A stretch of 6,118 bases of DNA from a virus (Duplodnaviria; Heunggongvirae; Uroviricota; Caudoviricetes). Location: the IMG/VR virus record IMGVR_UViG_2703719355_000006, positions 1 through 6,118 of that record; one strand, given 5' to 3'. This document shows positions 1,136 through 1,748 of the stretch, in pieces; positions within the stretch are counted from its first letter, which is position 1; the number at the start of each line of letters is the position of its first letter. Under the pieces are notes generated by a model, which ran no database searches, had not been told where the DNA came from, and saw only the letters and a program-made list of their open reading frames with translations. The translations under genes were made by a program, and so were the position numbers.

Positions 1136-1462
1136 CTACATAATCACTCCGGTTATTATTACCATTTCAATATCACTATCTTTCATAATGATTGGAGTTG
1201 AGTTATCAACTTTACTTTTACTCCATTTTCCTGCATCAGTTTTTACCGCTCCACAATAAGAAAGCCAATCATCATCACAATGTTCTGGATCACTAATTCT
1301 GACAAGAACACGTGATAGTGCTTTTTCGATACTTTCATCACAATTAGCATTTGTGTAATTGCCGTGAGACAATTTCAAATCGTTAACTTCATCTTCATTG
1401 GCATCAAAAATATAGATTTCAGTCGACTCTGGAACATTTTCATAAACCATTAAAACTTTCAT
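1136..1462 (-). CDS. hypothetical strongly acidic protein (108 aa), accessory gene in the N-cIII interval
   Basis: ORF track 1136..1561 trimmed to ATG (1462-1460) preceded by a purine-rich ATGGGGTAAAA stretch. Product MKVLMVYENVPESTEIYIFDANEDEVNDLKLSHGNYTNANCDESIEKALSRVLVRISDPEHCDDDWLSYCGAVKTDAGKWSKSKVDNSTPIIMKDSDIEMVIITGVIM has about 21 D/E versus 10 K/R. Region is AT-rich (~33% GC by hand count) relative to the neighbouring regulatory genes. Confidence 0.6.
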   Translation of the reverse strand: MKVLMVYENVPESTEIYIFDANEDEVNDLKLSHGNYTNANCDESIEKALSRVLVRISDPEHCDDDWLSYCGAVKTDAGKWSKSKVDNSTPIIMKDSDIEMVIITGVIM

Positions 1463-1502
1463 TTTTACCCCATATTGTTTATGCCAAAAATAAAGGCCAC
1501 CA

Positions 1503-1748
1503 TCAGGCAGCCTTGTTGTAAATGTTGCAGGTATCAAGTAAGTAATTAGATGGAGCGCCATAAATTATGAATTCATCGTTTGTCGGGTCCATCTCTTGGC
1601 CTATTGCCATTCTTGCGTCAGTGTCATCAGAGGCGAAGCATAAAACAGCCCACGCACCCATTGTTTTAAAAAGAACTGCAATTGGCTGTGGTTTTACTGA
1701 ATTTGCGTTAGCGCGAAAATCACAAATCGCACTTTCATGAAATTCCAT
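1503..1748 (-). CDS. hypothetical protein (81 aa), first gene downstream of N
   Basis: Complete minus-strand ORF; ATG (1748-1746) lies 8 nt after the N stop codon (TGAGTTGAGATATG), suggesting coupled translation. No motif recognised. AT-rich. Confidence 0.55.
   Translation of the reverse strand: MEFHESAICDFRANANSVKPQPIAVLFKTMGAWAVLCFASDDTDARMAIGQEMDPTNDEFIIYGAPSNYLLDTCNIYNKAA

Follow-up and report, generated by a model that had tools for sequence, protein, structure and literature searches.

A single-gene cassette next to the ral slot of lambdoid prophages encodes a conserved acidic protein

Introduction

What does a small, strongly acidic protein encoded between the N and cIII genes of a lambdoid prophage do for the phage that carries it? 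In lambda and P22-type phages, the N–cIII interval harbours ral. It is a variable accessory region, the content of which differs among HK106, lambda, nine annotated prophage loci of E. coli and 18 prophage loci from IMG/VR. The surroundings of ral have been described as accessory DNA in which counter-defence genes are enriched (Silas et al., bioRxiv 10.1101/2023.04.06.535777).

Here, we analyze a 6,118-nucleotide stretch of DNA from a virus of the class Caudoviricetes (positions 1 to 6,118 of IMG/VR record IMGVR_UViG_2703719355_000006), to which we refer in its entirety as the window. The original prediction, made from the sequence of this DNA, was that the interval carries a pair of AT-rich accessory genes, one of which encodes a 108-amino-acid (aa) DNA-mimic anti-restriction or anti-defence protein that is expressed early from the pL promoter. 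We examine the organization of the locus, the properties and distribution of the acidic protein, and the functions that these make more or less probable.

Results

The window covers early-left and immunity genes of a lambdoid prophage

The gene content of the window (Table 1) identifies it as lambdoid prophage DNA that comprises the immunity region and the early-left region, where the elements of the left operon follow each other on the − strand in the order pL, nutL, N, 81-aa ORF, 108-aa ORF, terminators, cIII and kil. Positions 1–2553 are 99.8% identical to the IMG/VR contig UViG_2693429524_000004, and the GC content of the whole window is 41.1%.

Table 1 Features of the 6,118-nucleotide window
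Feature	Position	Strand	Basis and remarks
66-aa ORF	512–712	−	Downstream of kil
kil	697–810	−	
cIII	803–943	−	Pfam PF02061 Lambda_CIII, E about 3e-30
Terminator-like hairpins	1013–1028 and 972–991 (span 972–1028)	−	Terminator scan; between the cassette and cIII
Perfect 9-bp hairpin	1092–1119	−	GTGTATTCA-10 nt-TGAATACAC; directly downstream of the cassette
Single-gene cassette	1125–1474	−	Extent relative to phages without the 108-aa gene
108-aa gene	1136–1462	−	ATG at 1462, TAG 1138–1136; phrog_4658
Shine-Dalgarno-like GGGG	1468–1471	−	5 nt 5′ of the ATG of the 108-aa gene
Terminator-like stem-loop and T-run	1493–1514	−	Terminator scan; spans the stop codon of the 81-aa ORF
81-aa ORF	1503–1748	−	phrog_2471, E 1.9e-57; occupies the ral slot
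N antiterminator	1757–2098	−	Pfam PF25694 N_peptide, E 6.7e-25; phrog_271
nutL	2218–2251	−	Pattern match; boxA (GCTCTTTAAC) and boxB (GCGCTGACAAAGCGC)
Candidate pL	2299–2327	−	Promoter scan, consensus match; TTGATA-17-CATTAT
AT-rich control region	Between the 54-aa ORF and N		
54-aa ORF	2554–2718	−	phrog_4063
Ser/Thr kinase	2721–3767	−	Pkinase, E 2e-46; PADLOC mad6 and PD-T4-6 matches
RuvC-like gene	3761–4222	−	phrog_3875
DUF3024 gene	4290–4631	−	PADLOC candidate PDC-S43, E 2e-42
cI	4692–5399	−	
cro	5445–5705	+	
cII	5812–6111	+	

The nutL pattern is matched once in the window and in none of 200 shuffled versions of it. Its boxB sequence, GCGCTGACAAAGCGC, is presumably of the P22 type, as is the matching arginine-rich motif of N (GNAKTRRHERRRKLAIER), which is of the kind known from P22 gene 24. 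Taken together, these two assignments make the antitermination module P22-like, in contrast to cI, cII, cIII and kil, which are lambda-like. The candidate pL overlaps an operator-like inverted repeat (2295–2325); we infer its identity as pL because it is a consensus match only.

Two further parts of the window deserve a brief description. A block composed of the kinase, RuvC-like, DUF3024 and 54-aa genes (2554–4631, − strand) is located between cI and pL at the position of lambda rexAB, has a low GC content (about 35%), and is probably a set of prophage-expressed defence genes. Contig L020 is otherwise 99% identical but has a different, shorter segment in place of positions 2554–4245. The 66-aa ORF located downstream of kil (MEVKMIPVELAK...) produced no Pfam match; IMG/VR loci L018 and L027 have it in the same place.

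Two unrelated genes reside between N and cIII

Both ORFs of the N–cIII interval are real genes. There are two of them, as the original prediction had it; both are on the − strand, and each is covered over its full length by the profile of a phage protein family: residues 1–108 of the acidic protein align with positions 2–109 of the 109-position phrog_4658 profile (E 1.5e-37), and residues 1–81 of its neighbour with positions 1–83 of the 83-position phrog_2471 profile. Neither family carries a functional annotation. A GC content of about 33% had been ascribed to both genes, and this holds for the 108-aa ORF (33.0%) but not for the 81-aa ORF, the GC content of which (41.9%) is that of the window average.

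The start of the 108-aa gene is well defined, as the N-termini of phrog_4658 family members align at the methionine encoded at position 1462. RefSeq gives the coding sequence the same 327-bp extent and labels its product a hypothetical protein. A longer, 141-aa reading that starts at position 1561 was rejected: it overlaps the 81-aa gene and finds support neither in the family N-termini nor in the RefSeq annotation. Comparison with an 81%-identical homologue gave a dN/dS of 0.07.

Equivalents of the 81-aa ORF are annotated as coding sequences in HK106 (gp42), VT2-Sakai (H0090) and other phages. Its E. coli homologues are 83-aa proteins that are 95–98% identical and form clusters of 429 and 151 members. 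The copy in the window lacks two codons, EM, at about 1585–1595 (GQEMDPT compared to GQEMEMDPT in the 83-aa majority), which were probably lost by slippage in the GAGATG tandem repeat. The structure of the 81-aa protein was modelled poorly (pLDDT 53), and a comparison of its sequence with PDB sequences gave no or chance-level matches. A close 83-aa homologue (AFM76313.1) is entry UDP0060 of the library of Silas et al., in which 200 accessory genes were screened in ECOR strains; the text of the preprint (10.1101/2023.04.06.535777) and that of the 2025 paper do not list it among the named hits.

The two ORFs are unrelated to each other, as their families displayed no relationship in an hhalign comparison. 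More than 300 phage records contain the 81-aa gene without the acidic gene, and the position at which lambda carries ral can be taken by several alternative genes, of which the 81-aa ORF is one.

The acidic gene is an independent cassette downstream of the ral slot

The two genes had been thought of as a pair, an idea that comparison with phage HK106 does not bear out. The DNA on either side of the acidic gene is collinear with HK106 and highly similar to it (99% identity at 963–1124 and 96.6% at 1475–1760), and 350 bp of the window, which comprise the 108-aa gene and a few additional bases, correspond to 13 bp in HK106. The cassette is missing from both HK106 and Sakai-type phages. The junctions of the cassette, GGCATAAA(C/T)AA and GAATAA(G/A)CACTG, are identical in all carriers, and the leader ...CAATATGGGGTAAAAATG precedes the 108-aa gene in every prophage that we compared. 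The neighbours of the acidic gene, on the other hand, vary. Complete E. coli genomes and the 18 IMG/VR prophage loci contain at least eight different genes directly upstream of it, which encode Ral, Nmad5-family, 81/83-aa, 104-aa basic, 121/149-aa, 156-aa, 112-aa and 210-aa proteins. On its downstream side, the acidic gene is followed either directly by the terminators and cIII or by more cassettes, including one for a P22 GP17-family protein; in P22-type prophages, it is located between ral and the GP17-family gene.

The 81-aa ORF, in turn, occupies the slot of ral, in agreement with the proposal that this interval is where lambda carries ral: the two genes end with the same ...NKAA-stop and share a junction hairpin, and in loci aligned on the 108-aa gene their 3′ coordinates are identical. 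A C-terminal −(N/D)KAA is common to Ral, the 81-aa protein and orf184, another product of the ral accessory region. The core of the junction hairpin (1493–1514), GGCCTTTATTTTTGGCATAAA, is invariant in alignments of the DNA that follows lambda ral, HK106 gp42, the Nmad5-family gene and the 104-aa gene, and almost every base of the hairpin is shared with these loci. The lambda counterpart of this hairpin is found at about 1270–1300 of locus L009, and the 3′ end of BTP1 ral matches the junction region at 90.6%. Judging from these alignments, the hairpin looks like a conserved recombination junction at which ral-slot genes are exchanged. As all upstream alternatives end at this common junction, the region contains two slots, which the junction hairpin separates. 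On its 5′ side is the ral slot, filled in this prophage by the 81-aa ORF, and on its 3′ side is a second slot, filled by the acidic cassette.

Among the alternative occupants of the ral slot is an Nmad5-family protein (positions 6372–6995 of L002, and also in L011, L012 and L026; Pfam E 8e-71), the gene of which directly follows N in several prophages. This protein is a candidate DNA-modification counter-defence factor.

Predicted transcription signals around the cassette belong to the operon

The cassette is flanked on both sides by terminator-like hairpins that are shared features of the operon. In HK106, the sequence homologous to 1013–1028 is annotated as a rho-independent terminator. The perfect hairpin at 1092–1119 has no T-run, falls within the DNA that the window shares with HK106 at 99% identity, and is kept in HK106 as well as in lambda, where it is found downstream of the ral junction. 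This hairpin might serve in RNA processing or in termination.

A scan for promoter consensus sequences found four promoter-like sites at 900–2500, compared to 4.5 expected by chance, and none within the 108-aa cassette, although a weak promoter could escape such a scan. These signals are consistent with expression from pL under N antitermination, and we infer that the 108-aa gene would be a delayed-early gene, the transcription of which depends on N.

The acidic protein belongs to a family with a confidently predicted fold that resembles no solved structure

The 108-aa protein contains 21 aspartates and glutamates and 10 lysines and arginines. Its computed net charge of −11 (pI 4.36) agrees with the value estimated earlier, and the two acidic runs to which attention had been drawn, DANEDEVND and DPEHCDDD, are present in the sequence. 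A HMMER search of 1.84 billion representative sequences identified 58 clusters of relatives, most of which contain proteins of about 100–116 aa; the remaining clusters are shorter and mostly partial matches. The negative charge of the family is maintained (−8 to −17 in 30 of the 35 members) despite a sequence identity of only 25–44%, but the positions of the acidic runs differ from member to member. Of the acidic signature that had been proposed, the family thus conserves the overall charge and not the particular runs.

The best conserved residues are P11, E12, L29, H33, Y36, N38, A48, G78, W80, D/E99, T104 and G105. They are spread along the sequence, and a structural core together with a specific binding site accounts for this pattern no less well than the surface of a DNA mimic would. 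Among them, E12, H33, Y36, N38, W80, D/E99, T104 and G105 are polar or aromatic, do not form an acidic stripe, and could equally mark a ligand-binding or catalytic site.

Codon 106 (1145–1147), which adjoins the invariant G105, encodes a valine in the window, mostly a phenylalanine in the wider family, and a methionine in the seven close IMG/VR copies that were listed residue by residue. All 17 close IMG/VR copies of the protein differ from that of the window in at least one residue.

An AlphaFold2 model calculated with 35 family members (pLDDT 96.9, pTM 0.88) consists of an N-terminal β-hairpin, three helices and a C-terminal strand. Foldseek comparison of this model to all PDB chains, which include the solved DNA mimics, gave a best match with an E value of 0.41 and a TM score of 0.23, and a fold like that of a solved DNA mimic was not found. 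A search of BFVD returned only uncharacterised members of the phrog_4658 family itself. Thus, the fold of the 108-aa protein is predicted with confidence and, as modelled, is unlike any solved structure.

Sequence searches gave a concordant picture. Pfam contained no family for either ORF at E values up to 1, and the homology to Ocr, ArdA or Ral suggested as a check on the original prediction did not materialize at this threshold. PADLOC models produced no match to either ORF at E values up to 0.1, a scan of NCBIfam with both yielded nothing meaningful, and the phrog_4658 family profile matched PDB sequences at chance level only. No relationship between the phrog_4658 family and orf184 was detectable (hhalign probability 0.4%). 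The family motif was not found in the library of Silas et al. or in the searchable EVADES supplements, and a literature search returned nothing for either phrog_4658 or WP_001554880. Considering that neither profiles nor the fold gave a match, the 108-aa protein is related neither in sequence nor in fold to Ocr, ArdA, Arn, Ugi or another anti-defence protein of solved structure.

The family is rare in E. coli and spans temperate and virulent phages

DNA of the acidic gene is present in 16 of 5426 complete E. coli genomes and, at the nucleotide level, is absent from the phage collection. No phrog_4658 relative was found in GTDB species representatives. Given this rarity, any selective benefit conferred by the gene must be a niche one.

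At the protein level, tblastn identified full-length relatives with 23–35% identity in about 120–130 phage records, which include Klebsiella Jedunavirus phages, the Pseudotevenvirus phages RB43, RB16 and Margaery, Slopekvirus-like Klebsiella phages and Aeromonas phages. The family is carried by temperate as well as by virulent phages. In Margaery, the family member is the third gene after ndd in the early region, and a terminator comes next. Distant homologues are found in long same-strand arrays of small unannotated ORFs. Plasmids gave a single match, to a phage-like Burkholderia episome in which the homologue is part of an operon that adjoins the immunity region. With only one such match, the family is not a leading-region gene of conjugative plasmids.

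Discussion

Our best-supported guess, to be taken as tentative, is that the 108-aa protein acts early to inhibit a protein of the host or of a defence system. The following model can be proposed. The gene forms a self-contained, one-gene accessory cassette that possesses its own ribosome-binding site but no promoter-like site and that is inserted in the variable N–cIII stretch directly downstream of the ral slot. It would be transcribed solely by N-modified RNA polymerase that has passed the junction hairpin, which would place its expression early in lytic growth or upon induction. The product, predicted to be a compact, soluble and strongly acidic α/β protein, would most likely act by stoichiometric binding and inhibition of a host or defence-system protein, perhaps one that presents a basic surface to nucleic acids. 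It would thereby serve as a host-takeover or counter-defence factor alongside Ral, not replacing it.

Two features of the locus bear on this model. First, the acidic gene directly follows ral in at least six inspected prophages, and this frequent co-occurrence speaks for a role different from that of Ral and against a Ral substitute. Second, the genomic context of the family, which comprises (i) the ral hotspot, (ii) the vicinity of ndd, (iii) an operon next to the immunity genes in the Burkholderia episome and (iv) a near absence from plasmids, favours an early, dispensable function of the arms-race type. Counted against the inhibitor reading is the fact that acidity is common among small phage proteins that are not inhibitors. 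So are the lack of sequence or fold similarity to characterised anti-defence proteins, the polar or aromatic nature of the residues conserved best, the negative result in the library of Silas et al. and the searchable EVADES supplements, and the rarity of the gene.

A more specific version of the proposal is possible, though we think it rather unlikely that all of it holds. Here, phrog_4658 would be a new counter-defence family that complements Ral, has a fold not represented among solved structures, and has been passed as a single-gene cassette between temperate lambdoid phages and virulent T4-like and Jedunavirus phages, its members neutralising a defence or host factor either as a new kind of nucleic-acid mimic or through a conserved site made up of H33, Y36, N38 and W80.

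The protein might instead perform an accessory function internal to the phage life cycle and unconnected with defence, acting on host transcription, replication or division or on phage recombination. The operon that it shares with cIII, kil and recombination genes is what one would expect of such a factor, as is its location near the host-nucleoid disruption gene ndd in T4-like phages, and there are well-known cases in which small acidic proteins of phages bind to RNA polymerase or to other core machinery of the host. However, the gene is sporadic, being present in 16 of 5426 E. coli genomes and absent from most lambdoid phages, and is therefore dispensable for the core cycle; moreover, cassette-like exchange is more typical of arms-race genes. 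We regard a function of this kind as unlikely.

The idea from which this analysis started, that of an anti-restriction protein that uses its acidic surface to mimic B-form DNA and in this way to block type I restriction-modification, BREX or another DNA-binding defence, is less probable still. It draws on the net charge of −11 over 108 residues and the acidity of the family as a whole, on the position of the gene next to ral in an accessory region, and on the early expression that the operon signals suggest. Nor does the new fold count against it: Ocr, ArdA, Ugi and Arn are DNA mimics with mutually unrelated folds, so a further fold is compatible with mimicry and does not exclude it. Against mimicry, however, speak the missing Pfam match to Ocr, ArdA or Ral, the shifting positions of the acidic runs within the family, and the fact that the gene usually accompanies ral and does not take its place. 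The charge density, about 0.10 per residue, also counts against it, as it is probably well below that of Ocr or ArdA and nearer to that of Ugi.

It is similarly doubtful, and slightly more so, that the protein is a small enzyme or a small-molecule binder, such as a 'sponge' for immune signals, in which a pocket formed by E12, H33, Y36, N38, W80, D99 and T104 would modify or sequester a nucleotide signal or a metabolite. The polar or aromatic character of the most conserved positions and their spread through the sequence agree with this possibility, and so does the size of the protein, as known phage sponges are typically about 100 aa long. In at least four prophages, the gene adjoins that of the Nmad5-family protein, which belongs to a nucleotide-modification family, but this neighbour is one of many alternatives, and the model matches no solved sponge or enzyme.

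Least probable of all is a prophage-expressed moron that guards the lysogen by superinfection exclusion or defence, since its moron-like low GC content (33%) and cassette structure and the exclusion-related neighbours that it has in some prophages (e.g. the GP17 family, annotated 'superinfection exclusion') are outweighed by the lack of a promoter-like site of its own in a region where such sites do not exceed chance, its location within the repressed pL operon beyond a terminator-like hairpin, the full-length homologues in T4-like and Jedunavirus phages, which are strictly virulent, and the lack of a PADLOC match.

Should the acidic protein indeed inhibit a defence or host factor, the anti-defence repertoire would gain a family with a new structure. 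The range of its carriers, from E. coli prophages through T4-like phages of Klebsiella, Enterobacter and Cronobacter and phages of Aeromonas to a Burkholderia episome, would make it relevant to the design of therapeutic phages. The gene is a reasonable candidate for anti-defence screens, one among many uncharacterised phage accessory genes and not a discovery in itself. The arrangement in which it was found, one slot with a conserved hairpin junction followed by a second slot, is a recipe for harvesting further candidate genes.

Four known systems invite comparison with this locus. Ral (PF11058) is a 66-aa cysteine-rich protein. It is encoded in the same N–cIII accessory region of the pL operon as both ORFs and shares its slot, the C-terminal ...NKAA and the 3′ junction hairpin with the 81-aa ORF, yet it displays no sequence similarity to either of them in Pfam comparisons at E values up to 1. 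With the 108-aa gene, it co-occurs, the latter being no replacement for it. Ocr (T7 gp0.3) and ArdA are likened to the 108-aa protein by its small size, acidity and presumed early expression. The ndd/stp/arn early region of T4 provides another parallel: the 108-aa protein has no homology or fold match to Arn or other solved T4 early proteins, but the Pseudotevenvirus family members, three genes downstream of ndd, are encoded in a hyperplastic region, a neighbourhood that we take to be the counterpart of the T4 gene order. Finally, orf184 (AFM76385.1), an acidic 105-aa protein of the ral accessory region, triggers the gop-beta-cII abortive-infection system (Silas et al., bioRxiv 10.1101/2023.04.06.535777). 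While it has no detectable relationship to the 108-aa family, it resembles the 108-aa protein in its accessory region, in its size and in its acidity.
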